Notes: generated from the sequence alone by a model not told the origin. A stretch of DNA of 64,000 nt from Polyangia bacterium (GCA_030430565.1 JAUIKS010000004.1:269992-333991); one strand, 5' to 3'; shown: positions 1 to 15,808, counted from the stretch's first letter. Program-made: numbers and translations.

Positions 1-166
1 GGCTGAGCCCGCGAGCGCGCGCGCGAGCTCGCGCGCGCGCGCGGGCGCGAAGACGGCCGCCTCGACGCCGGCGCGGGCGAGCGCGGCGGCCAGCGAGGCG
101 CCGCGGACGACGTGCCCCGCGCCGCCGCCGAGCGCGTAGATCAGGACCGGCGCGCGATCCGACGCG
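1..166 (-). CDS. Partial CDS, 5' part of a glycosyltransferase (GT28/MurG-like); gene continues beyond the window start
   Basis: Minus-strand frame reads ...RAPVLIYALGGGAGHVVRGASLAAALARAG..., the N-terminal Gly-rich GGGxGH motif of MurG/GT28-type transferases. GC3 is high in this frame. No canonical start codon was found, so the start is uncertain. Confidence 0.35.
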
Positions 167-175
167 GCGCGCAGC

Positions 176-511
176 TCAGCTGCCCTCCCAGTGATCTTCG
201 ACCATGTCCCCAAAGTCGCTCGCGCCGGTCTCGAACAGGCTGTAGTCGGCGTCGCTGTAGGGCTCGTCGAACCAGGTGTCTTGGTGGAAGTACCAGAAGA
301 AGTAGGGGTCGTCGCGCAGGTGGGCGAAGGTGCCGCGGCGCGAGGGGTCGCGCATGGCCTCGCGCGTGCACGTGACGCAGGCCTGATGACCCTGGCTCGG
401 GCGCGCGTGCGACTCGCAGATCGGCTTGCCGCAGTGGGTGCACTGGTGGGCCGCGGTCTGCTTGCACGGGCGCTTAAACAGGATACCGGCGATCTCCTTG
501 CATCGTCTCAC
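176..511 (-). CDS. Small Cys-rich (zinc-ribbon-like) protein, 111 aa
   Basis: ORF with high GC3 and no Arg-rich bias. Two CxxC-type pairs (C-x6-C-THC-x4-C and CVTC) suggest a Zn ribbon. Lies 38 nt downstream of the lipoprotein gene on the same strand. Confidence 0.5.
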   Translation of the reverse strand: MRRCKEIAGILFKRPCKQTAAHQCTHCGKPICESHARPSQGHQACVTCTREAMRDPSRRGTFAHLRDDPYFFWYFHQDTWFDEPYSDADYSLFETGASDFGDMVEDHWEGS

Positions 512-549
512 GCGTGGCCTGCTTTCGGTGTCGCGGTGGTGGGCTCGGC

Positions 550-1326
550 TCAGCGCGCCGCGCCGTGGAACTCGTGGTGGAAGACCATCGCCGCGACGCG
601 CTGCTCGACGGTCAGCTCGGTGAGGCCGAGGAACACCGCCGAGCCGGCCGCGACGGCCTCGTCGACGCTGCCCTCCGGGGCGCCGTCGCGGCGCACGATC
701 CAGCGCCCGCCGTGGTGCTCGAGGGTCACGGCGCCGCCGCTGGTCAGCTCGACCTGGCTGCCCTTGACGCGCCCGAGCTCGCGGTCGTCGCCGAGCTTGA
801 GCTTGTAGCCGTCGCCCTTGATCTTGACCTTGAGCGCGGTGGAGTCGTCGGGGTTGTAGATCTTAAAGCCGTCGTCTTTCTGCTTGACCTTGGCCTTGAG
901 CGCGCCCGCAGCGTCCTTGAGCTTGACGCGATCGGCCTCGACCTTGAGCTTGCCGCGCTCGGCGTCGCCGGCCTTGAGCTTGTAGCCGTCTGGGTGCGGC
1001 TTCGCGGTCGCCCACGCGGCGCCGCCGATCTCGATGGAGAGCGGGACGCGTCCTTGCGAGACCTTCGTCGTCGCGGCGCTGCTCGGCGCGGCCTCACCGT
1101 TCGAACCGCCGTCGCAGGCGATGGTGAGGCCGCCGCAGGCGAGGCCGAGCGCGAGCGCGGGGGCGAGGGCGCGCGAGCGCAGGAGCCGTTGGCGGAGCGA
1201 GGGCGAGGGCGAGGGCTGCACGAGGCGATGGTAGGACGGCGCGCCGCGGCGCGCGACGGAAATGGTCGGCGCGCGGGAGCGCGCCTGCGCGTCCGCGAGC
1301 GGCCGACGAGCGCCGTGGTGGTACAT
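550..1326 (-). CDS. Lipoprotein with basic KLK-type repeats (about 258 aa from ATG at 1326)
   Basis: The long ORF 550..2292 is mostly antisense junk. The real gene starts at MYHHGARR... (ATG 1326). It has a lipobox ALGLAC/GG, then repeats DGYKLKAGD, GKLKVEAD, VKLKDAAG, LKVKIKGDGYKLKLGD. Confidence 0.6.
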   Translation of the reverse strand: MYHHGARRPLADAQARSRAPTISVARRGAPSYHRLVQPSPSPSLRQRLLRSRALAPALALGLACGGLTIACDGGSNGEAAPSSAATTKVSQGRVPLSIEIGGAAWATAKPHPDGYKLKAGDAERGKLKVEADRVKLKDAAGALKAKVKQKDDGFKIYNPDDSTALKVKIKGDGYKLKLGDDRELGRVKGSQVELTSGGAVTLEHHGGRWIVRRDGAPEGSVDEAVAAGSAVFLGLTELTVEQRVAAMVFHHEFHGAAR

Positions 1327-1413
1327 TGATCCGCAGGGCGTGCCGAGCCTGTTGTCGCGCGCTCGGTCGAGCCACGTAGGCGTGTTTGTGGGCACGAGCG
1401 AACGGCCACCTGT

Positions 1414-3234
1414 ATGAACGATCCGATCCGGATTCTCCTGTGGTTCGTCCGCAAGGACGACAGCCATGATCCGTTCGCGTTTCGCTTCGAGAGCCAGCTC
1501 TACAACGTGCTCGACGAGCGCGGCGTGGTCCTGCGCCCGGTCGAGCTCCCGTGGAGCGCGGCGCTGATGCGGCAGCTCGCGGCGCTGCGCGAGCCCAGCC
1601 CGCCCCAGCGCGCCCTCGAGGCGCTCGGCGCGGTCCTCAGCGAGTTCCTCGAGCCGGCCGGCTGGGCGCATCACTCGAAGGCGATCGTCGAGGCCAAGGG
1701 CACCCGCCAGGTCGTCGTCACGATCCGCGCCGCGGCGGCCGAGCTGTTCGCGTTGCCGTGGGAGCTGCTCACGATCAAGGAGACGCAGGAGCGCCTGGGC
1801 GCGCTCGATCACGTGATCCTGCGCTACGAGTGGCCGGGGACGAAGACCGTGCCGGCGCGGGCGCTGCCGGCGGGCGCGTCGACGCGTCGTGTGTTGATGG
1901 CGTGGGCTGGCGAGGTGCCGCACGAGGAGCACGAGCGCGCGATCCGGGCGAGCGCGGGGGCGGCGAAGGCGGGGGCCGCCGAGCTCTGTGTCGTGGCGAA
2001 CGCCTCGTACACCGACATCGCCGACGCGCTGCGCGAGGCGACGCGGGCGGGGCGACCGTTTCAGCTGCTGCACCTCCTGTGTCACGGCGGCGCGGACGAA
2101 GACGGGAGCTACGGGCTCGCGCTGGCGAGCGGCGACGGGGGCGTGGAGACGAGCGTGGTCGCGCCCGCGCGGCTGCAGAAGCTGGTCTCGAGCAACGCCG
2201 GCGAGCTGCGCTTGGTGGTCGTCGCGGCCTGCGACAGCGGGAGCGCGGGCGCGCCCGCGGCGCGGGCTGGCAGCGTGGCGCAGCGCATGCATCAGGCCGG
2301 CGTGCAGGCGGTGCTCGCCTCCCGCTACCCGCTCTCGATCACGGGATCGAGCCGGATGACGACCGCGCTGTACCGCGCGCTGCTCGAGCGCGACGAGAGC
2401 GTCGAGCAGGCCGTGATCGCGGCGCGGGTGGCCATCGATGACGGCGCCGGCTTTGACTGGGCGAGCCTCCAGCTCTACGCGCGCGCCGCCGACGGCGTGG
2501 GGATCCGGGTGTGGCCGCCTGCGCCGAAACCTGTCGAAACGGTCATGTCTCCCGGCGAGGGGGCGGCGACCGGCGCGACGGGGGGGCGCGCGTGGATCTA
2601 CGGCGCCGTCGCGGTCCTCGTGCTCGGCGCGGGCTTCGGGATCGTCCGCGCGCTCACGCCTCCGCCGGGCGCGGACGGGGCGCCCGCCGGGCAGCGCGCG
2701 AGCGACGCGGTCGTGACCGCGCAGAAGGATCTGCCCGCCGAGGCGAGCCCCGGCGCCGCGACCACGGAGGCGACGACGGGCGACGGGACGAGCTCGGGCT
2801 CCGAGGGGCGGGCGGAGACCGACGCGAAGGCGCCGGCGGAGCCCGGGACGACCGGCGCCGAGCCGGTGGCGAAGTCGACGATGGACCCCGCGCTCGCGCC
2901 CGAGACAAAAAAACTCCCGCCCGCGCGAACAGATTCGGCCCCGAAGGCGACTCCCAAGCCGAAGACCGTTCGATGCAGCGGCGCGAAGGAGAAGTGTTCG
3001 AAAGGGCTCATCGACAAGATCGAGGAGAAGCTGCTCGCGCCCACCGGCGGGGGCAGCTACTCGGTGAAGCTCAACGCCTGCGTCGACGGCTCGGTCAAGC
3101 TCGCCAGCTGCTCCGGCTGCAGCGACGCGCTCGAGCGAGAGGCGAGCGGGCGCGCGAAGCGGGTGAGCGCGAGCGTGGTCAAGAGCAAGGGGAAGGACAA
3201 GCTGCCGTGCTACGCGTCGTTTCGCTGGGATTGA
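1414..3234 (+). CDS. CHAT-domain (caspase-like) protease, membrane-anchored, with extracytoplasmic Cys-rich tail (606 aa)
   Basis: Conserved CHAT motifs: FALPWELL N-terminal motif, catalytic His in LLHLLCHGG, and catalytic Cys in VVVAACDSG. One predicted TM helix AWIYGAVAVLVLGAGFGIV. A Pro/Ala/Thr-rich linker precedes a C-terminal module with 8 Cys. Confidence 0.85.
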   Translation: MNDPIRILLWFVRKDDSHDPFAFRFESQLYNVLDERGVVLRPVELPWSAALMRQLAALREPSPPQRALEALGAVLSEFLEPAGWAHHSKAIVEAKGTRQVVVTIRAAAAELFALPWELLTIKETQERLGALDHVILRYEWPGTKTVPARALPAGASTRRVLMAWAGEVPHEEHERAIRASAGAAKAGAAELCVVANASYTDIADALREATRAGRPFQLLHLLCHGGADEDGSYGLALASGDGGVETSVVAPARLQKLVSSNAGELRLVVVAACDSGSAGAPAARAGSVAQRMHQAGVQAVLASRYPLSITGSSRMTTALYRALLERDESVEQAVIAARVAIDDGAGFDWASLQLYARAADGVGIRVWPPAPKPVETVMSPGEGAATGATGGRAWIYGAVAVLVLGAGFGIVRALTPPPGADGAPAGQRASDAVVTAQKDLPAEASPGAATTEATTGDGTSSGSEGRAETDAKAPAEPGTTGAEPVAKSTMDPALAPETKKLPPARTDSAPKATPKPKTVRCSGAKEKCSKGLIDKIEEKLLAPTGGGSYSVKLNACVDGSVKLASCSGCSDALEREASGRAKRVSASVVKSKGKDKLPCYASFRWD

Positions 3235-6119
3235 TCGGCCGCGCGTCGCGGGGGCGTCGCGGGCTGCTGGCGCTCGTCGTCATCGCCGTGTTGGCGCTCC
3301 TCGTCGGCGCGGACGCGCGCGCGCAGGAGGTCGCGCCCGCGGCGGAGCCCGAGCGTGGCGCGACCGGGGCGCCGCCGCCCGATCCCTGCGACGTGATGTG
3401 GACGCTGACGCTGCTCGACGAGGACCAGCGCGCGCTCATGCACGACGCCTGCGAGCTGGGTCCCAAGCCCAGCGGCGAGCTCGCGGCCGCGATGGCGCGG
3501 CTGGCGAGCTCTCCGGGCTGGCACGCGGGCGCGCTCGCGCACCTGGTCCAGCCTGGCGGGAAGACCCGGTTCACGGCGGGCGCCGAGCAGCCGGCGATCG
3601 AGGACATCCAGACCTGGGTGCAGCTCAACGGCAAGGCCTTCGCGGCGCTGCCCGAGGGCGCGAGCGGGGCGCGTCGGAGCGCGGGTCTGCGCGCGCGCCC
3701 GGCGGTCCATCCAGATGACCCTTCAGGCAGCTGGGGGCCGCTGTCCGACGCCTGCGGGGAGATCCGGCACGGCGAGCTGATGCGCAGCTTCCTCGACAGC
3801 GTCGAGGCCGACGCGGCGCCCGAGGACCTGCCCTTCGACGCCGACTTCCTCGAGTGCGTCGGGGTCGACAGCGCCCGCCTGCGCGGGACGAGGGTGCTGA
3901 CGGTCCGCGCCGACGGCCTGACGAGCTTGACCGCGATCATCGGGACGCGGACCTACACGCACGTGCGGGTGTTCGACCGCGCGAGCGCGCTGAAGATCGG
4001 CAAGCACCGCTTTCACGTGCTGGTGGTCCCCGAGGCCGCGCCGGTCACGCTGGTCGGGCGACATCAGAACCTCGAGCTGCCGCTGTACTGGCACGCGATC
4101 GTCGGCCGCAACGAGGCGGTGTGGGTCGAGCCGGTGCACATGTCGTGCCTCGAGCTGAGCTACGTCGCCGACGACGACACGCGGCTGTACTTCGACGGCG
4201 TGCCGATCCAGGCGCGGGGCGTCAAGACGCGGCTGCCGGGCGCGACGCGGCGCGAGCGGACGCTGACGATCTCGCTCGACCAGGCCCGCGCGCGCCTCCC
4301 CGATCACGAGGTCGTCGCGCTCAAGCACGTCTGGGGGACGGCCGACGCGCCTGGCACATGGACCATCCGACACCGCGAGAGCCTGCCGGCCGCGGTCAAG
4401 CCCGCCGAGCTCACGCGCGCGCACGAGTGTCGGGTGCTGAGCCTCGACTTCAGCGAGCCGGCGAAGAAGCGCATCGCGGTCCTGGGCGTCTCGCAGGGCG
4501 AGAGCTGCCAGCACTCGCCGATGTGGGCGGATGACCTGCGCGAGCGCGTGCGCCGGGTGATCGAGGACGACCCGGCGCACCGCGAGCGTCGCCAGTACGC
4601 CAACTTCTCAGCCTACGCGGCCGCCGCGGACGCGCTCTCGGCTTTGAAGTCGCGGCTCAACCCGCAGGAGGGGCGCACCACCGGGGCCGAGACCGGGGCC
4701 GACGCGATGGCGCTGGTGGGGACGGCGGCGAAGGAGGCGTGGCGCCAGGGCATCGACACGCTGCTGTCCTTCGAGCTGCAGTGCTCGCCGCGGGAGCCGG
4801 CGCGCTCGCGGCCCAGCGCGCCGCCGCTGCCGGGGCGTGACACGAGCGAGTGGAGCTACTCGCTCAAGGCGACGCGCATCGACGTCCGCAGCCTGTTCGC
4901 GCGCGGCTACCACGGGCGCGAGAGCCTCGACCTCGAGCGCTTCATCCACGTCGAGTCGATCGGCTTCGAGTCCTCGCGCATTCAGGAGCCGGTGCTGACC
5001 GTGCTGCTCGACCGCGTGTTCGCGGTCGTCGGCGTCCGGTTCATCTCGGCCGCCTCGAGCGTGCCCTACCGCGCGTCGTTGATGGTGCGCGCGGGGGTGT
5101 ACTTCGACGAGACCGAGGGCGCGCACTCGTGGGGGATCCCGCTCGCGGTGGTCTCGCTCGGGCCGACCGCCGGCGTGACTTGGAGTCAGAAGCTCGTCGT
5201 CGAGGATGACGGCGGTCGCCGGGCGATCCGCACGCAGCGGCCGCAGATCTGCGAGCAGCTCGCCAGCCGGGGCGGGCTCGACGCGGCGACGCGGGCCGAG
5301 CTCGACCGGCTGCTCGGCGCGAAGTCGTCCGGCGTGGTCGTCGGGCTGCGCGAGAGCAGCCGCGCGATCGACCAGAGCACGAACCCCGCGGCGGCGGTCT
5401 ACGAGGGGGTGTTCCGCGCGCCGCGGCCGGGCTGGTACCTGCTCGCGCTGTCGAAGGAGGAGGCGATCTGCGTGCACGCGACCGCCGACCCCCGCGAGCT
5501 GTGGGGCGACATCGCGATCACCGGCGGCCCGCTGATGTTCGGGCTCAACAAGACCTTTGAGACAGGGACTGCGGCCAAGCTGTACCTGCGCAGCCGCTTC
5601 GGCGCGACCTGGTACAACGCGCGCGCGCGCTGGATCGGCTACGGCCTGTTCGGCGGCTTCGCGTTCACCGACTACCGGGGCGCGCGCTCGGACTGGTCGG
5701 ACCTCGGCGGGACCGCGGGCGGGACCGGCTCCGCGTCGGACGAGCAGCGGCTGTGGCGGCGCTTCTCGCTGCTGCTCGGCCCGATGCTCGAGTTCCGCTC
5801 GCGCGCGACCGCGGCCGAGATCGAGTTCCGCGCGCGGGTGTCCCCGGCGGTCAACCTCGGCGTCGTCGACCTCACGCGGATCCCGGCGGAGGCGGCCGAC
5901 TTTCGCCGGCGCAACGTCAACGACGGGGTGCTCGACGTGGACTTCGACGTCTTCGTCGATCTCGGCATGTCGGCGCCGGTCGGGCGGGTCGAGCTCGGCG
6001 GCGCGATCATGCTGGGCTACACGGGCATCGACGATCGGCTCGCGTTGTCGAGCACCACCGCCTTCGCCGACGCGAACCTGTTCGTCGGGGTCGGGCTGTT
6101 TCTGGGGGGGGCGAGATGA
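3231..6119 (+). CDS. Large secreted protein (about 960 aa), unknown function, C-terminal region beta-barrel-like
   Basis: The long ORF 2511..6119 is junk upstream of about 3230. A TTG at 3231 overlaps the CHAT stop (tTGA) and gives signal peptide IGRASRGRRGLLALVVIAVLALLVGADARAQE. GC3 is high throughout. The C-terminal 300 aa show alternating hydrophobic strands (WIGYGLFGGFAFTDY, RVELGGAIMLGYTG, LFVGVGLFLGG). The start codon is uncertain. Confidence 0.6.
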   Translation: MIGRASRGRRGLLALVVIAVLALLVGADARAQEVAPAAEPERGATGAPPPDPCDVMWTLTLLDEDQRALMHDACELGPKPSGELAAAMARLASSPGWHAGALAHLVQPGGKTRFTAGAEQPAIEDIQTWVQLNGKAFAALPEGASGARRSAGLRARPAVHPDDPSGSWGPLSDACGEIRHGELMRSFLDSVEADAAPEDLPFDADFLECVGVDSARLRGTRVLTVRADGLTSLTAIIGTRTYTHVRVFDRASALKIGKHRFHVLVVPEAAPVTLVGRHQNLELPLYWHAIVGRNEAVWVEPVHMSCLELSYVADDDTRLYFDGVPIQARGVKTRLPGATRRERTLTISLDQARARLPDHEVVALKHVWGTADAPGTWTIRHRESLPAAVKPAELTRAHECRVLSLDFSEPAKKRIAVLGVSQGESCQHSPMWADDLRERVRRVIEDDPAHRERRQYANFSAYAAAADALSALKSRLNPQEGRTTGAETGADAMALVGTAAKEAWRQGIDTLLSFELQCSPREPARSRPSAPPLPGRDTSEWSYSLKATRIDVRSLFARGYHGRESLDLERFIHVESIGFESSRIQEPVLTVLLDRVFAVVGVRFISAASSVPYRASLMVRAGVYFDETEGAHSWGIPLAVVSLGPTAGVTWSQKLVVEDDGGRRAIRTQRPQICEQLASRGGLDAATRAELDRLLGAKSSGVVVGLRESSRAIDQSTNPAAAVYEGVFRAPRPGWYLLALSKEEAICVHATADPRELWGDIAITGGPLMFGLNKTFETGTAAKLYLRSRFGATWYNARARWIGYGLFGGFAFTDYRGARSDWSDLGGTAGGTGSASDEQRLWRRFSLLLGPMLEFRSRATAAEIEFRARVSPAVNLGVVDLTRIPAEAADFRRRNVNDGVLDVDFDVFVDLGMSAPVGRVELGGAIMLGYTGIDDRLALSSTTAFADANLFVGVGLFLGGAR

Positions 6120-7744
6120 GCCGTACGAGACGACGCGCGCTGGCGCTGGCGCTGGCGCTGGGCGGCGGGCTGACGATGGGCGCGTGCCTGGCGTTCCCGA
6201 CCGAGAAGCAGTGCAAGCGGGCCTGCCTGACCGCGCGCGGCTGCGGGCTGCTGCCCTCGGCGCTCGGCGGGAGCAACACCGAGACCATCGACGAGGCGCA
6301 GGTCGAGTGCGAGCTGCGCTGTCAGTCGACGCTGCTCGAGACGGAGACGCCGCTGGCCCAGCTGCTCGCGCTGCTCGAGACCACCGAGTCGGCCACGCTG
6401 TGCAGCGAGGCGGGGCGGATGACCTGCGCGGCGCTGAGCTCGAGCATCGCGGCGAGCGACGAGCTGGCGAGCGTGCAGGTGACCTCCGAACTCACGGTGT
6501 ACATGGCGGATGTCCGCAGCTTCGTGGCGGCGTTTCAGCCGGAGCGGTGGTGCGAGTCCTCGTACTTCGGCGAGAGCGCCGCGAGCGTGACCCAATCCGT
6601 AGCGATCCCGACCAAGGCCTGCTTCGACGCGATCACGGCCGCGAGCGACTGCGCGACCGTGCAGGGCCTCTACAACGACGCGAGCGAGCAGGCGGACTGT
6701 CGCTACGCTCGGCTCAGCCAGGTCGCCGCGCTCGAGGGGATGAACGCCGCGGTCAACGGCTGCACCGACGACGACGCGACGACGCTCGTCGGCGTCAAAG
6801 AGCTGGTGAGCGACCTGGCGAAGGACTGGGGGCTGGACGACGGCGGCCTGCTGATCAGCGACGGCGCGGTCGAGGCTGACGTAGACGAGCTCGCGCTCCG
6901 CCTCAACGAGCAGGCGGACCGCGAGCTGCGGGGGGTCGACGGGATCTTCCGGGATGTCTGCATCGCCTATGAGAGCGAGCAGAACTCGGGGATGACGGGG
7001 ACGACGGGGACGACGGGGACGACGGGGACGACGACCGGCGACGGGGGCACGAACTGCAACGTCGCGCCGCTGTGTCGCGAGCTCGACTGCGACTCGGATG
7101 TCATCCACTGCGATCCCGCGCTCTGCGAGCTCGGCATCAACGGCCCGAGCCGGGATTGCGGGCTGCTCGGGATCCAGTCGATCCAGCTCGGCTACGAGTA
7201 CAAGGGGGTGCGCGAGCTCGCGCCGGACGCGGTGCTAGGCTGCGGCGACACAGCCGCCGCGTACGCGTTCTCGGGGGTGCCGCTGGCGCAGATGAAGCCG
7301 ATCGCGATCGTCGCGGGCGCGCTCCCCGAGTACCTCGTGCCGGTCGACGTGACGCCCGAGGACGAGGATGAGCCGCTGGTCCACGAGTACACCTGGCACG
7401 TCGAGGGCGCGGAGCGCTGGACGCGAGCGGGGACGAGCCGACTCGTCGTGCCCTCGCCGCAGCTGCGCTACCTGCAGGCGCAGTACTCCAACCCGCTGGA
7501 GATGCTGGGATGGTTGCGGATCCGTCTGCCCGAGTCGGAGGCCTGCAACGAGCAGCCGCAGCTGTGCGAGGGCTACTTCAACAACAACTGCGACGACGGC
7601 CTCGACAACGACGGCAACGGGCTCACCGATCGCGAGGAGCCCTGGTGCGACGCGCTGTTTAACGAGCTCGCTGACGCCTGCCTCGTGGCTCACCACGCGA
7701 TCATGCCGAACCCCGCGTGCAACGTCGAAGACGACGAGCCGTGA
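6116..7744 (+). CDS. Cys-rich lipoprotein (543 aa)
   Basis: ATG at 6116 overlaps the upstream stop (ATGA). Signal peptide with lipobox MSRTRRRALALALALGGGLTMGAC. More than 30 Cys. Contains a (TGT)4 linker and a CDDGLDNDGNGLTDREEPWC module. Confidence 0.65.
   Translation: MSRTRRRALALALALGGGLTMGACLAFPTEKQCKRACLTARGCGLLPSALGGSNTETIDEAQVECELRCQSTLLETETPLAQLLALLETTESATLCSEAGRMTCAALSSSIAASDELASVQVTSELTVYMADVRSFVAAFQPERWCESSYFGESAASVTQSVAIPTKACFDAITAASDCATVQGLYNDASEQADCRYARLSQVAALEGMNAAVNGCTDDDATTLVGVKELVSDLAKDWGLDDGGLLISDGAVEADVDELALRLNEQADRELRGVDGIFRDVCIAYESEQNSGMTGTTGTTGTTGTTTGDGGTNCNVAPLCRELDCDSDVIHCDPALCELGINGPSRDCGLLGIQSIQLGYEYKGVRELAPDAVLGCGDTAAAYAFSGVPLAQMKPIAIVAGALPEYLVPVDVTPEDEDEPLVHEYTWHVEGAERWTRAGTSRLVVPSPQLRYLQAQYSNPLEMLGWLRIRLPESEACNEQPQLCEGYFNNNCDDGLDNDGNGLTDREEPWCDALFNELADACLVAHHAIMPNPACNVEDDEP
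6993..7028 (+). repeat. 9-bp tandem repeat gggacgacg x4, encoding (TGT)4
   Basis: Direct reading: atgacggggacgacggggacgacggggacgacggggacgacgacc. Confidence 0.8.
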
Positions 7745-7768
7745 CGGGCGGCGCGCGGGCGCGGGCGC

Positions 7769-10700
7769 TCAGGCGCGACGCGTGACGGTCCCGCGGTGCA
7801 GCGCGGTGTTGGCCGCCCAGGCCTGCTCGGGTGTCGGATCGACCAGGTGTCGAACCTCGCCGGCCTGCAGCACCGCGACCGCCTCGCCGCCCCGCAGCAG
7901 GATCCGGTTGCCGGCGACGGCGGGCACTCGCTCCCCGGGGAGGATGACGCCGAGCAGGTTGAGCGGGTCGGCGGCGGACAGGCAGAGGAGCTCGCGGTCG
8001 CGGTCTCCCTCGCCGTCGCGCCTGGCCGCGCGCAGCAGGCCGACGGCCTCGGGCAGCGCGTACTGCTCGCCGTCGACGCGCCCGCCGGAGACGAAGCGAC
8101 CGCCGCGGAGCTCGCCGCGGGCCTCGAGGCGACGCAGCGCTCGCAGCAGCGCGCGCCAGGGCGGGAGGTTGCGCTCGCGCTTCAGCAGCCGGCGGAACAC
8201 GACCCCGTAGCGGCGCAGCAGCACCCGCGCGACCGCCTCGGCGCGCTCGCTGTCGTCCGGGTCGTAGAGATCTGGTTCTTCGTCCATGTCGTCCGTGAGC
8301 AGGTCTCGCGGCGCGAGCGTCGACCAGCGCCCGGCGCGATCGAGCGGCGTGTCGTGCAGCGCGCGACGGGCTCGGCTCGCGCGCCCCCGACGTCCGCGGC
8401 CGCGCGCTCCCGCCGCGCCGCGACCGGAGGTGGCGCTCTTCGGGCCCAGCAGCGCGCGCAGCCCCGCGAAGCTGTCCGAGGTGAGCTCGCCGGCGGCGAC
8501 GAGCTCGCCGAGCGCGGTCTCGGCCTGGGTCCGCAGCAGCCCGGTCGCGGCGACGAGCTCGCGGAAGAACAGCGCGCCGCCGCGCTGCAGCACCGCGAGC
8601 AGCCGGCGCGCGTCGGAGGAGAGCCGCGGCGCCTCGTCCTCGGGCGTCTCCTCGGGCTCCTCCTCGTCGGGGCCCTCGACCCAGAGGTCGAGGTTCTCGC
8701 GCGTCAGCAGGGCGACGGGGGTCGACCGCAGCGGCCCCGAGCGCCGCCGCCCGCGGGGGGATCCGGCGCGCACGCTGCCCCAGACGATGTGACCAGAGAG
8801 ACATAAGGTGTCGAGCCACTCGGGCTCGTAGCGACGCAGGCGCGCGGGCAGCAGCTCGGTCTCCCAGGCGACCGCCGGCGCCTCGAAGCCCTCGAGGCGC
8901 TCGACCGCCGCGCGCAGGCTCTCGCGGCCCTCGCCGCGGGACTCGCTCGGCCCGGCGACGCCGTGCCAGCGCGTCAAGAAGCGCATGAAGGTCGCGCAGT
9001 CGACGGGCTGGATCTCGGCGCGCAGGCGGCGGATGGTGTAGCGGTGGATGCGGGCGAGCAGCCCGCGCTCGCACCATTCCTCTTCGGGCAGGTCGGGGTT
9101 TGGCCGCGGGTCGTCGAGGGGCTCGCCCGCGGGGGCCTCGGCGCGGGCGGTGAAGCGTCCGCGCAGCGCGTAGCCCTCGCTCTCGAGCGCGAGCAGGGCG
9201 GCGTCGACCGAGCTCGTCGCGAGGCCGAGCGCTCCGGCGAGCGCCGCGGCGGTGGTCGGGCCGAGACCGCCGAGGCGCGCGCGCGTGAGCTCGAGGGTCG
9301 CGAGATCGGGGTCGCGCGCGGGCCCGGCCTCGTCGCGCGCGCGCCGACGCGGGGGCGTGATCAGAGGCTCGAGCGGGCAGCGCTCGGCGCCGCCGAGCGC
9401 GGCCCACAGCTGCTCGAGGCGCTCGGCCGCGACCCAGACGCGGGCCCCCGCCGGGGTCGTGAGGGTCGTCGCGCGGCCGGAGCTGGCGAGCTTCGCGAGC
9501 AGCCCGCTCCAGGGGCGCCCCGATCGGCTCCGCCCCGCGAGACCTTCCTGTTCGGTCATATAGCCCAGCAGGACCAGGCCGTCGTGCAGCTCGTCCGCGC
9601 TCTCCGCCTCGGGCCAGGCCTGGGCGCGCACGCGCGCGATCGCGGCGGGGTCGAGGGTGGCGAGCTCGGCGGCGTTGCGCGGGTCGAGCCAGCGGCGCGT
9701 CCGCACGGCCTGGGTCCGCCGCTCCTCCAGCGGCGCGTCGTCGAGGAAGGCGTAGGGGTTGGCGTTGAGGACCTCGTGCGAGAGCGGCGAGGGCTCGGTG
9801 AGGTCAGCGGTCACGAGCCGCTTCTTCCCGGCGACGATGTCGGCGATCAGCGCTTCGAAGCCCTCGATGTCCATGGCCTCGCGCAGGCAGTCCTCGATGG
9901 TCTGCTGGACCAGCGGGTGGTCGGGGACCTCGCGCGCGCCGGTGATGTTCTCGAGGCAGGCGTTGGCGTCGGGGAAGACCACGGCCGCGAGGTCGTCGGC
10001 GAGCATGCGCTGCAGCTGCGGGGCGACCTTCTTGCCGCTGCGGCGGCGCGGGACCGCGAGCGCGCGCCCGGCGTTCCAGCGCCAGCGGATCTCGAACATC
10101 GGCGCGTCGAGCAGCGCCTGGACCAGCAGGTCGCGCAGCCCGGCGGGCTGGAGGAAGCGGAACACGTCCTCGAGCGGGAAGCTGTGTACCTCGCCGAGCG
10201 AGATGACGATCGCGTCGTCGGTCGCCGCCGCCTGCAGCTCAAAGTTGAAGCGCCGGCAGAAGCGCTTGCGCAGCGAGAGCCCCCACGCGCGGTTGATCCG
10301 CGAGCCGAAGGGGGAGTGCAGCACCAGCTGCATGCCGCCGCTCTCGTCGAAGAAGCGCTCGAGCACGAGCGTGTCCTGCGAGGGCATGGCCCCGAGCGCA
10401 GCTTGCCCGGCGGCCAGGTACTCGGCGAGCTGCTCTGCCGCCGGCAGCGCGAGCCCGAGGGTCTCGACGAGGTGACGGAGCGCCGCGCCGTCCTCGCGCG
10501 CGAGCAGCTCGCCGAGCTCGACGCGCAGGCGCGCGACCGCGGCCGAGAGCTCGCGCGTGCGTCCGGGCGCCTCGCCGAGCCAGAACGGGATCGACGGCGG
10601 CTGGCCGGCGGCGTCCTCGACCCGCAGGCGCCCGGGCTCGACCTTGACCACGCGCCACGAGCTGTTGCCGAGCTGGAACACGTCGCCCGCCATGCTCTCG

Positions 10701-12397
10701 ACCGCGAAGTCCTCGTGCACGGTGCCGACGCGCAGGCCCGCCGGCTCGAGCAGCACCTCGTAGTCGCCGGTGTCTGGGATCGCGCCGCCGCAGGTGATCG
10801 CGGTCAAGCGCGCGCCGCGACGGGGCCTGAGCCGATGGTTGACCGCGTCGCGGTGCAGCAGCGCGCCCCGGCGACCGCGTCGGGTCGAGAAGCCGTCGGC
10901 GAGCATCTCGACGATGGCGTCGAACTCGTCGCGGTCGAGGCCGCGGTAGGGGTAGGCGCGCGTGACCAGCTCGAACAGCTCATCCTCGCCCCAGCTGGTG
11001 TCGACCTCCTCTTCCTGCTCGACCGCGTCGTCGTCGTCCTCCTCCGCGCGTCGCCGCGACCGCGAGCGCAGCGGCTCGCGGGCGGCGACCGCGGCGACGA
11101 GCTGCTGCGCCAGGATGTCGAGGGGCTTTTGGGGCATCTCGAGCTGGTCGAGCTCGCCGCGGCGGACGCTGTCGAGCAGCGCCGCGCACTCGATGAGGTC
11201 GTCGCGGGTGATCGGGAACAGCCGGCCTTTGGGCGTCTCGCCGACGCTGTGCCCCGAGCGACCGACGCGCTGCAGGAACGCGGCGATCGAGCGCGGCGAG
11301 CCGAGCTGGCACACCAGGTCGACCGCGCCGATGTCGATGCCGAGCTCGAGCGATGCGGTCGAGACGATCGCGGCGAGCTCGCCGGCCTTGAGCCGCTGCT
11401 CGCAGCGCAGGCGCTTCTCCTTGGACATCGAGCCGTGGTGCGCGCCGATCCGCTCGGCGCCGACGCGCTCGGCGAGGTGTCGGGTGACGCGCTCGGCCAT
11501 GCGCCGGGTGTTGACGAACACCAGCGTGGTCTTGTGGCCCTGGATCAGCGCGGCGATGCGGTCGTAGACCTCGGCCCAGACCTCGTGGGACATGACCGCG
11601 GAGAGCGGCGAGCCGGGCAGCTCGAGCGCGAGGTCGGCCTCGCGGCGGTGGCCCTCGTCGATGATCTCCACGGCCTCGCGGGCGCGGTTGATCGCCTGGT
11701 CGCGGGGCCATGAGCCGACGAGGTAGGCGGCGACCTCCTCGATGGGGCGCTGCGTCGCCGAGAGCCCCACGCGCAGCGGCGCGGCGCCGACGCGGTCACG
11801 GGCGAGCGCGGCGAGGCGCTCGACGGTCAGCGCCAGGTGGGCGCCGCGCTTGTTGCCGACGAGCGCGTGGATCTCGTCGACGATGATCGTGCGCGTGGTC
11901 GCCAGCATCTCGCGGCCGCGCGCGCTCGTCAGCAGGATGTAGAGCGACTCGGGGGTCGTGACGAAGAGGTGCGGCGGGCGGCGGAGCATGGCCTGGCGCG
12001 CCGAGCTCGGCGTGTCGCCCGTGCGGACGGCGACGCGCAGCGGGGCCGGCGGGAGCCCGCGGCGCTCGAGCGCGCGCTGGATGCCGGCGAGCGGCGCGTG
12101 GAGGTTGCGCTCGATGTCGTTGCTCAGCGCCTTGAGCGGGGAGACGTAGACGACGCGCGTCTCGTCGGGCAGCTCGCGCTCGCCGCCGCGCTCGCTGGCC
12201 TCGCGCACGAGCGAGTCGATCGCGGTCAGGAACGCGGCGAGCGTCTTGCCCGAGCCGGTGGGCGCGGCGATCAGCGTCGGCCGCCGCGAGCGAATCGCGC
12301 TCCAGCCACGAACCTGCGCCGGCGTGGGCGCGGCGAAGCTCTGCGCGAACCACTCGGAGACCGCTGGGTGAAACGCGTCAAGTGCAGTGTGTGCCAT
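7769..12397 (-). CDS. lhr: ATP-dependent helicase Lhr (large helicase-related), 1542 aa
   Basis: Walker [13 protein letters not shown] box ([14 protein letters not shown]), and helicase motif [10 protein letters not shown]. Length and the long C-terminal extension are typical of Lhr. Confidence 0.9.
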
Positions 12398-12898: not shown

Positions 12899-13989
12899 GC
12901 GACCTCCGAGGTCGCGCGCCGCCCGGGCCAGTGAAACCACGCGACGAAGCAGCCGTCGATCAGCTCGGCGCCGAGCAGGCGCCGCGCGAGCGCGTCGTCG
13001 AGGCTCGCGCGGGCGTAGCCGTGGGTCACGAAGTCGCCGCAGATCCGCAGCCCGATGCCGTGGCCGCCGGTCGTGAAGCCGCCGCGAAACAGCTCCGAGA
13101 GCTGGTCGCCGAAGCGCTCGCGCAGCGCGGCCTGCTGGGCCGCGCTCACGCGGTTGATCACGGCGAAGCGGAGGTCGGTGTCTTCGAAGTCGTCGACGGC
13201 GCGGACGACCACGTCGACGCGGCCGTCGACGCTGTGCCGCGCGGCGTTGTTGACGAGGTTGTAGATCACGCGGTCGAGCGCGGAGAACTCCATGCAGCGC
13301 TCGCTGACGGCGCCCTCGAAGTCGCAGTGAAAGCGCACGACCGTCGTCGTCGTCGCCGGCGCGTCCGCGGCCCCCGGGGCGTAGCGCACGTCCGTCCACT
13401 TCTCGCGCAGCAGCGCGACCGAGTGGGCGCGGCCCTGGAGGTCGAGCTGGTAGCGCGCGGGGTCGAGGTCGTGCAGCGCGTTGCGCATCATCTTCAGGTG
13501 GTCGCGCGAGAGGATGAAGACGCGCTGCAGATCGTTCGGCAGCGCCTCGTCCTCGCGGATCACGTCGAGGTGCATGAGCAACGCCATCAGCGATCCGCCG
13601 CGGACGTCGTGCAGCGACCGCCGGATCGACATCGGCGCGTCGGCGGCTCGCAGCGTCGCGCCCAGCCGGCGCACGCGCGCGAGCAGCTCGGTGAACAGCT
13701 CGGAGCTGACGAGCTCGCGCAGCGCGGCGAGGCCCTGCTGCGGGCGCTCGAGATCCGCGCGGCTGCGGTCGTAGACGACGAGCAGGAACTCGTAGAGCGC
13801 GCGGACGTTGGCGCGATCGAAGCTGGGGAGCTCGCGGATGGACGCGGTGACGGTGTCGCCGCGGTAGCGCTCGCCGCGCTCCCGCAGCGTGGTCGTGGGC
13901 GCGAGCGCGAGCAGCCGCGCGGGGGAGATCGGGCAGGGGGCCTGGGCGCTCATCGTTGGATCGGGTGCCTCCACGAGGGGACGTGGCAC
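12895..13989 (-). CDS. Sensor histidine kinase (cytoplasmic, 364 aa)
   Basis: H-box LHDVRGGSLMAL, N-box NLVNNAARHS, and G-boxes GGFTTGGHGIGL. Confidence 0.8.
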   Translation of the reverse strand: MPRPLVEAPDPTMSAQAPCPISPARLLALAPTTTLRERGERYRGDTVTASIRELPSFDRANVRALYEFLLVVYDRSRADLERPQQGLAALRELVSSELFTELLARVRRLGATLRAADAPMSIRRSLHDVRGGSLMALLMHLDVIREDEALPNDLQRVFILSRDHLKMMRNALHDLDPARYQLDLQGRAHSVALLREKWTDVRYAPGAADAPATTTTVVRFHCDFEGAVSERCMEFSALDRVIYNLVNNAARHSVDGRVDVVVRAVDDFEDTDLRFAVINRVSAAQQAALRERFGDQLSELFRGGFTTGGHGIGLRICGDFVTHGYARASLDDALARRLLGAELIDGCFVAWFHWPGRRATSEVA

Positions 13990-14103
13990 CCGCGCGCGCG
14001 CGCGGCCGCAGACAGGGGCCGCGCCGCGCGGGACCGTGTTTTTAGGGACATGCTCGAATGAGCATGTGATAACGGCGCACGAGCCGCGGCGCGACGCCGC
14101 GCG

Positions 14104-15250
14104 TCAGCCCGGATCGGCGCCGACCAGGAACACCTCCTCGTGCATGTAGAACGCGCCGCCGATCAGCGCGCCGCTGCTCGGCGCGCCGGCGAGCGTGAGC
14201 GGCGGGAAGTCCTCCCAGCCCGCCGCGTAGGTGTACTCGAAGCACTGGGTGATGTCCTGCACGTGCGCCATGCTCTCGGTGAGCGCGACCGCGTGGGGGC
14301 CCAGCGCCTGCTCTTGGGAGCAGCCGTACTGCATGGGGTTGATCCACGTGTTCTCGCCCACGATGTCCATCCACATCGCGCGCACGTCGTCGACCGCCGG
14401 CGCCTCGGGGACCTGCCAGCCCTCGTTGTCGTCGCAGCAGGGCACCTCAGAGACCTCGGCGGCGTCGTAGCTCTCGGGATCGAAGCCGCCGTAGTACCAG
14501 GAGGTCTCGGTCGTGAGCATCGAGACGTTCTCGGTCGACGTCGGGAGGCCGCCCATCAGCTCGCCGTCGTTGTACGAGAACGCGATGAGGAGCGTCGCGC
14601 CCGCGAGATCCGGGAACATGCTGTCGCGGTCGCCGGCGTCGACCCAGCCGAACTCGTCGAGGTCGAGCACGTGGTAGGTGTCGTGGGTGAGGATGAACGC
14701 GCGGCGGATCGCGTTCGCGCTGAACGACGCCTCGATCGGGGCGCTCGGCGCCAGGTCGGCGTTGCCGAGCTCGTCCCAGCGGATCGGGTTCCACTGCTGA
14801 TCGCCGACGGGCAGCGACCACAGCGCGCAGCCGTCGGGCTCGACGCAGCTCCACTCGCCCCAGGTGCAGTCGTCGCCGCAGGTCCGGGACTCGGTCCCGC
14901 ACGGGTCGCAGGCGCCGCCTGGCTCGACCTGTCCCGGCGTACACTCACCGGGGCAGCTGCCCGGCTCGCCCGTCGAGGTGTCCGGATCCATCGTCGTGGT
15001 GCTCGAGCCGTCGCCGGTCGTCGGCGACCCGGTGGCGCCGGCGGTCGTGCTCGTCGCGTCCGAGCTGGTCGAGGCGCTCGTCGTGCTCGAGGCGCCCGGA
15101 TCGGTCGCGCCGCCGGTGCCGGCGTCCGTGTTTCCCGCGCCCGTGAGCCCGTAGCTCGAGCTGGAGCCGCCGCCGTCGTTGAAGCACCCGGCGCATAGGG
15201 GCGCTGCGAGTGCGCAGGCTAGAATTAGCGAGCTTGTATCTCGGGTCATG
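14104..15250 (-). CDS. Lipoprotein (382 aa) with Ser/Thr-rich linker and Cys-containing C-terminal domain
   Basis: Real start is MTRDTSSLILACALAAPLCAGC (ATG 15250, lipobox LCAGC). A low-complexity STG-rich linker follows. The globular C-terminal domain is of unknown function. Confidence 0.6.
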
Positions 15251-15339
15251 TCCGTAAGTTTATGTCGGTGCGGGGGGCGATTTCGAGCTGCGCGATGAGC
15301 GCGTCGGGGCAGAAGGCGCCAATTTTCCGCTTGACGACC

Positions 15340-15400: not shown

Positions 15401-15808
15401 ATGACGGCGACAGAACATCTCGGGAAGCTGCAATTATCCATCATGCGCGTGCTCTGGTCGGCCGGCGAGGCCACCGTCAGCGACGTACACGAGGCGCTGC
15501 GTCACAGCCACGGCCTGGCGCCCACGACCATCGCCACGATGCTCAAGAAGATGGAGCGCAAGGGGGTCGTCTCGCACCGGACCGAGGGACGGCGCTTCGT
15601 CTACCGGCCGACGGTGAGCGAGGCGCTGGTCACCCGCTCGATGGTCACGGAGCTCGCCGAGCGCCTGTTCGACGGCGACAAGGTCGCGCTCGTCAGCCAC
15701 CTGCTCACGGCCCACGAGGTCGACGCGGATGAGCTGGCGGCGCTGCAGAGGAAGATCGACGCCGCGCGCCACGGCGCCGGTCAGGACGAGGATAAGGAGG
15801 AGGCGTGA
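15401..15808 (+). CDS. BlaI/MecI/CopY-family transcriptional repressor
   Basis: N-terminal winged-helix sequence LSIMRVLWSAGEATVSDVHEAL...TTIATMLKKMERKGVV is typical of penicillinase-repressor family proteins. The stop overlaps the start of the downstream M56 peptidase gene. Confidence 0.8.
   Translation: MTATEHLGKLQLSIMRVLWSAGEATVSDVHEALRHSHGLAPTTIATMLKKMERKGVVSHRTEGRRFVYRPTVSEALVTRSMVTELAERLFDGDKVALVSHLLTAHEVDADELAALQRKIDAARHGAGQDEDKEEA

Follow-up and report, generated by a model that had tools for sequence, protein, structure and literature searches.

A three-gene operon of a Polyangia bacterium encoding a membrane-anchored CHAT protease and two exported partners, a possible envelope-spanning sensor

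The g1 protease gene and its operon

The DNA analysed here, referred to below as the window, is a 64-kb stretch (64,000 nt, GC content ~73%) from a Polyangia bacterium (GCA_030430565.1 JAUIKS010000004.1:269992-333991), and its subject is an operon of three genes on the plus strand, designated g1, g2 and g3. The first gene, g1 (1414-3234), encodes a membrane-anchored CHAT protease of 606 amino acids (aa), g2 (3231-6119) a predicted outer-membrane-anchored periplasmic protein of 962 aa, counted from the TTG codon at position 3231, and g3 (6116-7744) a predicted Cys-rich lipoprotein of 542 aa. The initial annotation had described the same three genes with 4-nt overlaps, and we found both at the positions it gave; the protein lengths it listed for g2 and g3 (960 and 543 aa) had to be corrected.

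The TGA stop codon of g1 (3232-3234) forms a tTGA overlap (3231-3234) with the TTG start codon of g2, and the TGA stop codon of g2 (6117-6119) an ATGA overlap (6116-6119) with the ATG of g3 at 6116. Public gene callers choose an alternative g2 start, the GTG at 3207, which extends the protein to 970 aa; g1 is overlapped either way. Short overlaps at these junctions were found again in most of the orthologous loci, and are therefore a conserved feature rather than a product of chance. All three reading frames also have a marked codon-position signature, with a GC content at third codon positions (GC3) of 0.93 in g1, 0.96 in g2 and 0.94 in g3. A similar signature is present in the neighbouring Lhr helicase gene and absent from the overlapping alternative open reading frames (ORFs), which is why we consider g1, g2 and g3 to be real genes.

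Pfam analysis identified a CHAT domain (PF12770, clan CD) in residues 93-354 of g1 (E 1.5e-17, 64.5 bits versus a cut-off of 24). The His/Cys dyad, described as intact in the initial annotation, consists of His224 (codon 2083-2085, motif LLCHGG) and Cys273 (codon 2230-2232, motif AACDSG). A search for relatives of g1 returned 148 homologues; both residues are invariant in the 46 orthologues that were aligned, and the degeneration of the dyad that had been named as a warning sign was seen in none of them.

The alignment of the 46 orthologues was used to build an AlphaFold2 model of g1, with a mean predicted local distance difference test (pLDDT) score of 80. The model consists of four parts: a confidently predicted CHAT domain (residues 1-360), a helix (395-412), a disordered stretch (415-509) and a C-terminal domain (~525-605). 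The CHAT domain adopts a caspase/separase-like fold in the model. In structural comparisons it scored 20.8 with Csx29/TPR-CHAT, 18.0 with gingipain, 17.6 with separase, 17.4 (21%) with SAVED-CHAT and 14.3 (22%) with DdvA; its fold is nearest to those of Csx29, separase and SAVED-CHAT. Profile match, dyad and fold together make g1 a bona fide CHAT family member, and the invariant dyad together with the modelled closeness to these three proteases supports its competence as a protease.

The CHAT part of g1 (residues 1-360; 1414-2493, plus strand) is followed by a single transmembrane (TM) helix (residues 393-412; 2590-2649, plus strand), which contains the sole hydrophobic 19-mer of the protein and coincides with the helix 395-412 of the model. 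This agrees with the earlier description of one membrane helix behind the CHAT domain. No N-terminal signal peptide was found, and in 45 orthologues the 15 residues preceding the helix contain on average 2.5 Lys/Arg residues, compared with 1.1 in the 15 residues following it, which indicates an N-in orientation.

Beyond the helix lies a tail of 194 aa. Most of its length is taken up by a disordered linker of ~100 aa, rich in Pro, Ala, Thr, Lys and Glu (residues 413-520; 2650-2973, plus strand; pLDDT ~40) and predicted to be periplasmic. In the orthologues the linker is 61-158 aa long (mean 92), with ~85% low-complexity residues and ~19% Pro. The protein ends with an 85-aa alpha/beta domain (residues 521-606; 2974-3231, plus strand; pLDDT 90-97), terminating in LPCxxxFxW, whose modelled topology is helix-strand-strand-helix-helix-strand (a-b-b-a-a-b). 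The initial annotation had given this tail as an extracytoplasmic region of about 190 aa with 8 Cys residues. Its length and predicted location stand, whereas the number of Cys residues is six (521, 528, 556, 566, 569 and 599). Of these, C528 (2995-2997) and C599 (3208-3210) form the only near-invariant pair, and they share this degree of conservation with G559, P598 and W605.

Pfam gave no match to the tail domain in any of 39 individual tail sequences, and a profile built from them gave none among PDB sequences. In a HMMER search of 1.84 billion representative proteins, the domain was found exclusively in fragments or as the C-terminal end of proteins of ~575-615 aa, apart from matches spread over multiple stretches of giant repetitive proteins, which were taken as spurious.

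The CHAT domain is thus predicted to be cytoplasmic and the tail periplasmic, because of the missing signal peptide, the Lys/Arg bias (2.5 versus 1.1) and the near-invariant Cys pair of the tail. The placement of the tail on the extracytoplasmic side is additionally suggested by g1 paralogues, described below, that bear Ricin-type lectins beyond the TM helix.

The exported partners g2 and g3

The g2 protein begins with a signal peptide (residues 1-31; 3231-3323, plus strand) composed of an Arg-rich N-terminus and a hydrophobic core (7-30), and judging from an AxA motif it is probably cleaved after ARA. Of the ten Cys residues of g2, eight are invariant and the other two nearly so. Conservation of the protein is highest at residues ~420-480 and ~540-600. 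The AlphaFold2 model (pLDDT 74.6) comprises a helical region (50-210), beta-sandwiches (220-420), an alpha/beta region (430-620), a beta region (620-770) and long antiparallel strands (781-961). In the model, the C-terminal part (residues ~750-962; 5478-6116, plus strand) folds into an 8-stranded outer-membrane beta-barrel, and Foldseek matched it to the TM domain of OmpA with a probability of 1.0 (E 1.3e-4 to 1.9e-4). With a barrel fold and a Sec signal peptide in one protein, g2 is best described, as far as the model goes, as anchored in the outer membrane by an OmpA/NspA-like barrel. It had been characterized earlier as a large secreted partner; export is borne out by the signal peptide, but a free secreted protein it would not be.

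The two termini of 8-stranded barrels such as that of OmpA are periplasmic, and the N-terminal part of g2 is therefore placed in the periplasm. The likeness to OmpA, NspA and OmpX is confined to the fold of the C-terminal ~210 aa. In contrast to OmpA, the domain order is inverted, the barrel standing behind ~720 aa of novel domains, and g2 has neither an OmpA_C peptidoglycan-binding domain nor a match to a Pfam barrel family. No Pfam domain of any kind was found in g2 or in its 21 homologues.

The product of g3 is predicted to be a lipoprotein on the basis of a signal peptide and a lipobox (LTMGA-C), the Cys24 of which (6185-6187) is invariant in 13 orthologues. The earlier description of g3 as a Cys-rich lipoprotein is thereby upheld: the protein contains 27 Cys residues, 14 of them invariant across the alignment of the 13 orthologues, which share the motif C-x3-C-x5-CG(L/F)LPSxLG. 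A clade-specific insertion occupies residues ~150-315. An acidic C-terminal motif of the DNDGNG type is found in some clades, that of the window among them, and it is from this motif that a weak, sub-threshold NCBIfam match to an acidic double-disulfide repeat (residues 490-511) arises. None of the g3 orthologues has a Pfam match.

Neither partner resembles a gasdermin or an NTPase/TPR effector, as had been stated: g2 and g3 gave no such match in Pfam or PADLOC, and none to any NCBIfam model above threshold. More broadly, g2, g3 and the g1 tail lack any match in Pfam, in PADLOC and among PDB sequences.

Two functions had been proposed for the trio, trans-envelope sensing and proteolytic release. 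The first fits the anatomy described above. The second, in which the CHAT domain would cleave g2, g3 or its own tail and so free an extracellular factor, has a precedent in DdvA-type CHAT domains, for which periplasmic autoprocessing has been suggested (PMC11506125). However, the CHAT domain of g1 has no signal peptide and is cytoplasmic according to the charge bias, whereas g2 and g3 possess export signals and many conserved Cys residues, and g2 appears to be fixed in a membrane. As protease and presumed substrates are predicted to reside on opposite sides of the inner membrane, release is topologically unlikely, and we regard it as hardly credible.

Distribution of the trio and its relatives

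Homologues of g2 are exceptionally scarce, as a search of 5.8 billion clusters returned only 21 of them. Those with a named source come from Myxococcota (Myxococcales, Myxococcota metagenome-assembled genomes (MAGs) and Paraliomyxa miuraensis), the others being metagenome or assembly proteins. With each GTDB species represented by one genome, a scan yielded 12 loci, all in Myxococcota (Nannocystaceae, Nannocystis, Paraliomyxa and Polyangia/Myxococcales MAGs), and a tblastn search with g2 gave no match among plasmids or phages. From its occurrence in sequence collections, the trio appears to be a rare operon of marine-type myxobacteria confined to one Myxococcota lineage.

Wherever the DNA of a locus extended far enough to either side, inspection of ORFs and tblastn analysis showed all three genes together. 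In total, the trio is present in ~15 distinct loci (the window, L001/8, L002/7, L004-L006, L009-L013, L015, L016, L020 and L021), with identities of 28-64%; those of L020 and L021 were reached with CHAT homologues as the starting point. Identity to the window proteins falls to 28-30% for g2 and to ~25% for g3. The order g1-g2-g3 was found in L001/8, L002/7, L005, L006 and L009-L012 (in L012, g3 is recognisable only as a weak match), the order g2-g3-g1 in L004, L015 and L016, and in L013 g1 is divergent and upstream of g2-g3. L014, a contig end, was left out of the linkage count. Maintenance of the linkage across different gene orders and at 28-64% identity speaks for function rather than shared ancestry of the block. 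The initial annotation had asked for synteny across Myxococcota and other phyla: the trio does hold together in permuted orders down to 28-30% identity, but within the single lineage. It had also considered that the partners might usually be encoded without a CHAT gene; every sufficiently flanked g2 homologue lies beside one.

The same data bear on a structural explanation, according to which g2 and g3 are ordinary outer-membrane proteins that act as an envelope tether, or whose linkage to g1 is coincidental and has no signalling meaning. The build of g1 behind the CHAT domain, with its membrane helix, Pro-rich linker and terminal domain, would also suit TolA or TonB, and L022 provides an example of g1 without adjacent g2 and g3. 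Against this stand the linkage, which has been kept through three gene orders and divergence to 28% identity, and the invariant dyad. Furthermore, there is no sequence match to TonB_C, TolA, FecR or STN, and no ExbBD or TolQR genes occur nearby in the partly annotated gene map of the window. We consider this explanation quite improbable. Cell-surface signalling systems and couplers of the TonB/TolA type (FecA-FecR, TonB, TolA-TolB-Pal) nevertheless follow a similar trans-envelope logic.

The N-terminal CHAT module of g1 is not restricted to the trio. With 42-50% identity, it recurs in STAND-type NTPase proteins (PF20703, AAA_16), and also in proteins in which it precedes a TM helix with a Ricin lectin or RCC1 repeats, or other C-terminal extensions. 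Such receptor-like CHAT-TM-Ricin/RCC1 paralogues are encoded at L017:6001-11850 and L018:2432-8229 and include the proteins P0059, P0070, P0086 and P0096; a single genome may contain several of these CHAT paralogues. One CHAT-TM-Ricin protein adjoins a 1367-aa tachylectin/tectonin protein, and another CHAT-TM paralogue adjoins a STAND protein with Metallophos, AAA_16 and TPR domains. As the neighbours of these paralogues differ, g2 and g3 go with the tail domain and not with CHAT as such. CHAT seems, from these comparisons, to behave as a portable output domain placed on varied sensors, a pattern that favours a role in sensing or conflict.

In one large clade, the CHAT gene is adjoined by a gene for a cytoplasmic protein of 554-683 aa with a weak match to Peptidase_C25 (E 4e-6), in which a SHG...ACFGAG pair is visible. 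This C25-like protein occurs in L001/8, L002/7, L006, L009, L020, L021 (two copies) and L022, for instance at L001:4409-6073, L020:5249-6940, L021:3816-5618 and 13557-15254 (both minus strand) and L022:5235-6920 (minus strand). It had no PADLOC or PDB sequence match and could be either a second protease or a substrate. In the same clade, a gene for a rubber-oxygenase-like protein (MPAB_Lcp_cat) is often situated 3' of g3 (L001:12565-13875, L002:12535-13914, L020:13400-14665). Neither the C25-like protein nor the MPAB_Lcp_cat oxygenase has a homologue anywhere in the 64-kb window.

The relatives invite the suggestion of an abortive or altruistic death system analogous to extrinsic apoptosis, in which g2 and g3 would detect an attack on the envelope and g1 would kill or arrest the cell, in relatives often via a second caspase-like protease. 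The CHAT domain is nearest in fold to the defence proteases Csx29 and SAVED-CHAT, the adjacent C25-like protein of the relatives recalls the cascade from SAVED-CHAT to PCaspase, paralogues are fused to STAND NTPases, and Kaur et al. (PMC8195603) have described caspases as effectors in the conflict systems of multicellular bacteria. On the other hand, the window holds neither an effector nor a second protease, PADLOC has no match for g2, g3 or the C25-like protein, the locus is not in a defence-island context, and a gasdermin suspected in L010 found no support. A death function is, in our opinion, possible but doubtful.

The suspected gasdermin was a 292-aa ORF of L010 (13956-14834), which overlaps g3 at its 3' end and on inspection by eye resembled a gasdermin; it was rejected for lack of Pfam, PADLOC and PDB sequence support. 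The same locus, from a Polyangia MAG, encodes a 2003-aa protein directly upstream of the module (2065-8076), with peptidoglycan-binding, Amidase_2 and DUF7362/DUF7379/DUF7363 domains and a C-terminal CHAT domain.

Within the window, the operon is bordered upstream by two ORFs on the minus strand, a divergent one of 258 aa (550-1326), lipoprotein-like and with K-L-K-rich repeats, and a Cys-rich one of 111 aa (176-511; CxxC...CxxC). Downstream lies a convergent gene (7769-12397, minus strand) for an Lhr-type helicase with the Pfam domains DEAD, Helicase_C, DEAD_assoc and Lhr winged-helix, whose stop codon is 24 nt from that of g3. With a divergent gene upstream and a convergent one downstream, g1-g2-g3 is thus a self-contained unit. 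A scan of positions 1-8200 for promoters and terminators gave nothing exceeding shuffled expectation. In L005, the closest relative, the Lhr-type helicase likewise neighbours the module, and a homologue of the 111-aa Cys-rich ORF is also found upstream of it. Farther downstream in the window (15443-18567, plus strand), a 121-aa ORF, whose N-terminal residues have by eye the look of a BlaI/MecI-type repressor, runs into the beginning of a 920-aa ORF with hydrophobic segments at its N-terminus; the two may form a BlaR1-like sensor-protease pair.

Known CHAT systems and a proposed envelope-spanning sensor

No description of the module turned up in full-text searches of the literature. The earlier claim that it matches no described CHAT system is therefore justified for the trio but not for the architecture of g1, which has a precedent in HetF of Anabaena/Nostoc, the founder of the CHAT family. 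In HetF, an N-terminal cytoplasmic CHAT domain is joined by one TM segment to a C-terminal part in the periplasm, and the protein cleaves or degrades the cytoplasmic protein PatU3 (PMC9457339). The N-terminal CHAT domain and TM segment of g1, with the topology predicted above, correspond to this arrangement. The periplasmic part of HetF is made of TPR, whereas that of g1 is a disordered linker followed by a novel 85-aa domain, apparently stapled by Cys residues and without a TPR match. Moreover, so far as PMC9457339 states, HetF has no coupled genes for an outer-membrane barrel or a lipoprotein, while the trio includes both.

The HetF precedent raises the question of whether g1 is simply a housekeeping or developmental protease, degrading one cytoplasmic regulator (of division, envelope growth or development), with g2 and g3 only positioning or stabilising it. 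The equivalent architecture, with a cytoplasmic substrate in HetF, is compatible with this, and so is a single-copy chromosomal locus amid ordinary genes and without phage or plasmid matches, in hosts that are developmental bacteria of the multicellular type. It is less easily reconciled with the swapping of the CHAT module (42-50% identity) among STAND-NTPase, lectin and other sensors and the several paralogues per genome, which are typical of conflict or sensing, with a periplasmic part that is not TPR, and with the restriction of the module to a narrow set of genomes. We judge such a role unlikely, though worth keeping in mind.

A second precedent is SAVED-CHAT, from the Haliangium type III-B/CBASS system, which becomes active on oligomerisation and has another caspase-like protease as its substrate (10.1101/2023.06.23.546230). 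However, g1 has no SAVED domain: the PADLOC model of 498 positions was matched over 10-283, and 284-498 remained unmatched. The sensor of SAVED-CHAT is a nucleotide receptor, whereas the sensor part of g1 would be extracytoplasmic, and there is no cyclase, Cas10 or CRISPR gene in the partly annotated gene map of the window or in the Pfam-annotated upstream flank. The traits of Craspase (Csx29) are likewise absent, as g1 has no TPR and the window ORFs listed, whose annotation was not systematic, include no CRISPR-associated genes.

DdvA of Myxococcus xanthus is also a membrane CHAT protein, a transmembrane anti-sigma factor with a periplasmic TPR-CHAT part (PMC11506125). Its CHAT domain is periplasmic and has an incomplete dyad, in contrast to the predicted cytoplasmic domain and intact dyad of g1. 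The output of DdvA is the release of a sigma factor, whereas g1 lacks sigma and anti-sigma domains and is not adjoined by a sigma gene.

Based on these observations, we suggest that the operon encodes an envelope-spanning sensor with a cytoplasmic caspase-like protease as its output, a proposal to which we assign a probability of roughly 0.5. The g2 protein would be exported and its C-terminal 8-stranded barrel inserted in the outer membrane, leaving the multidomain part of ~720 aa hanging into the periplasm, where the disulfide-rich lipoprotein g3 would share its compartment. g1 would sit in the inner membrane with the CHAT domain in the cytoplasm, and its ~100-aa flexible linker would span the periplasm, allowing the disulfide-stapled C-terminal domain to dock on g2 and/or g3. 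A trigger at the outer membrane or in the periplasm, such as envelope damage, phage, attack by a predator or competitor, or a ligand, might then change the docking and with it the clustering or conformation of g1, so that the CHAT protease would be switched on and cleave one or more cytoplasmic targets. Signalling is proposed to run from the outside in because CHAT is the sole cytoplasmic, catalytic element. By analogy with SAVED-CHAT, activation of g1 might occur through oligomerisation. The topology used in this model is inferred, as are the physical association of the three products, the direction in which the signal runs, the protease substrate and the biological function; the feasibility of the model is suggested by HetF, with a cytoplasmic CHAT domain, a TM segment and a periplasmic part, and by SAVED-CHAT, with oligomerisation and a cascade.

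Several observations weigh against the sensor proposal. A candidate substrate is encoded neither in the operon nor in the 64-kb window, and the C25-like neighbour of the relatives is absent. There is no recognisable defence island around the locus, and PADLOC recognises only the CHAT part. In L022, a tail-bearing CHAT gene has no g2 or g3 within 7 kb. A sensing role is assumed for g3 and for the ~720-aa part of g2 that precedes the barrel. The ordinary chromosomal context, the lack of a PADLOC match for the partners and the lack of an effector gene also call for caution as to a defensive role.

A bolder and more speculative extension of the proposal is that the operon is a bacterial counterpart of extrinsic (death-receptor) caspase activation. 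The barrel protein and the lipoprotein would signal that the envelope is under attack by way of a tether across the periplasm, and this tether would directly switch on the cytoplasmic caspase-like protease, which in many relatives would in turn fire a second caspase-like protease. The system would then be one member of a wider, so far undescribed "receptor-CHAT" class, in which a TM helix joins CHAT to a lectin, an RCC1 or a tail domain. We put this forward tentatively, as an idea with the odds against it.

To our knowledge, the triggers of bacterial CHAT and caspase-like systems act inside the cell and are cyclic nucleotides, CRISPR RNA-guided complexes or STAND NTPases, and for the developmental protease HetF we know of no partner of the periplasmic part. 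What the operon seems to add is a sensor arm of three unannotated families (g2, g3 and the g1 tail domain, all defined here) attached to CHAT protease signalling. If the proposal is true, it would mean outside-in control of intracellular proteolysis across the Gram-negative envelope via dedicated outer-membrane and periplasmic partners. The operon also suggests that receptor-like CHAT proteins form a broader set in social bacteria of the multicellular type. If a role in death or defence were shown, receptor-mediated activation would join the features that caspase signalling in bacteria and in animals have in common.

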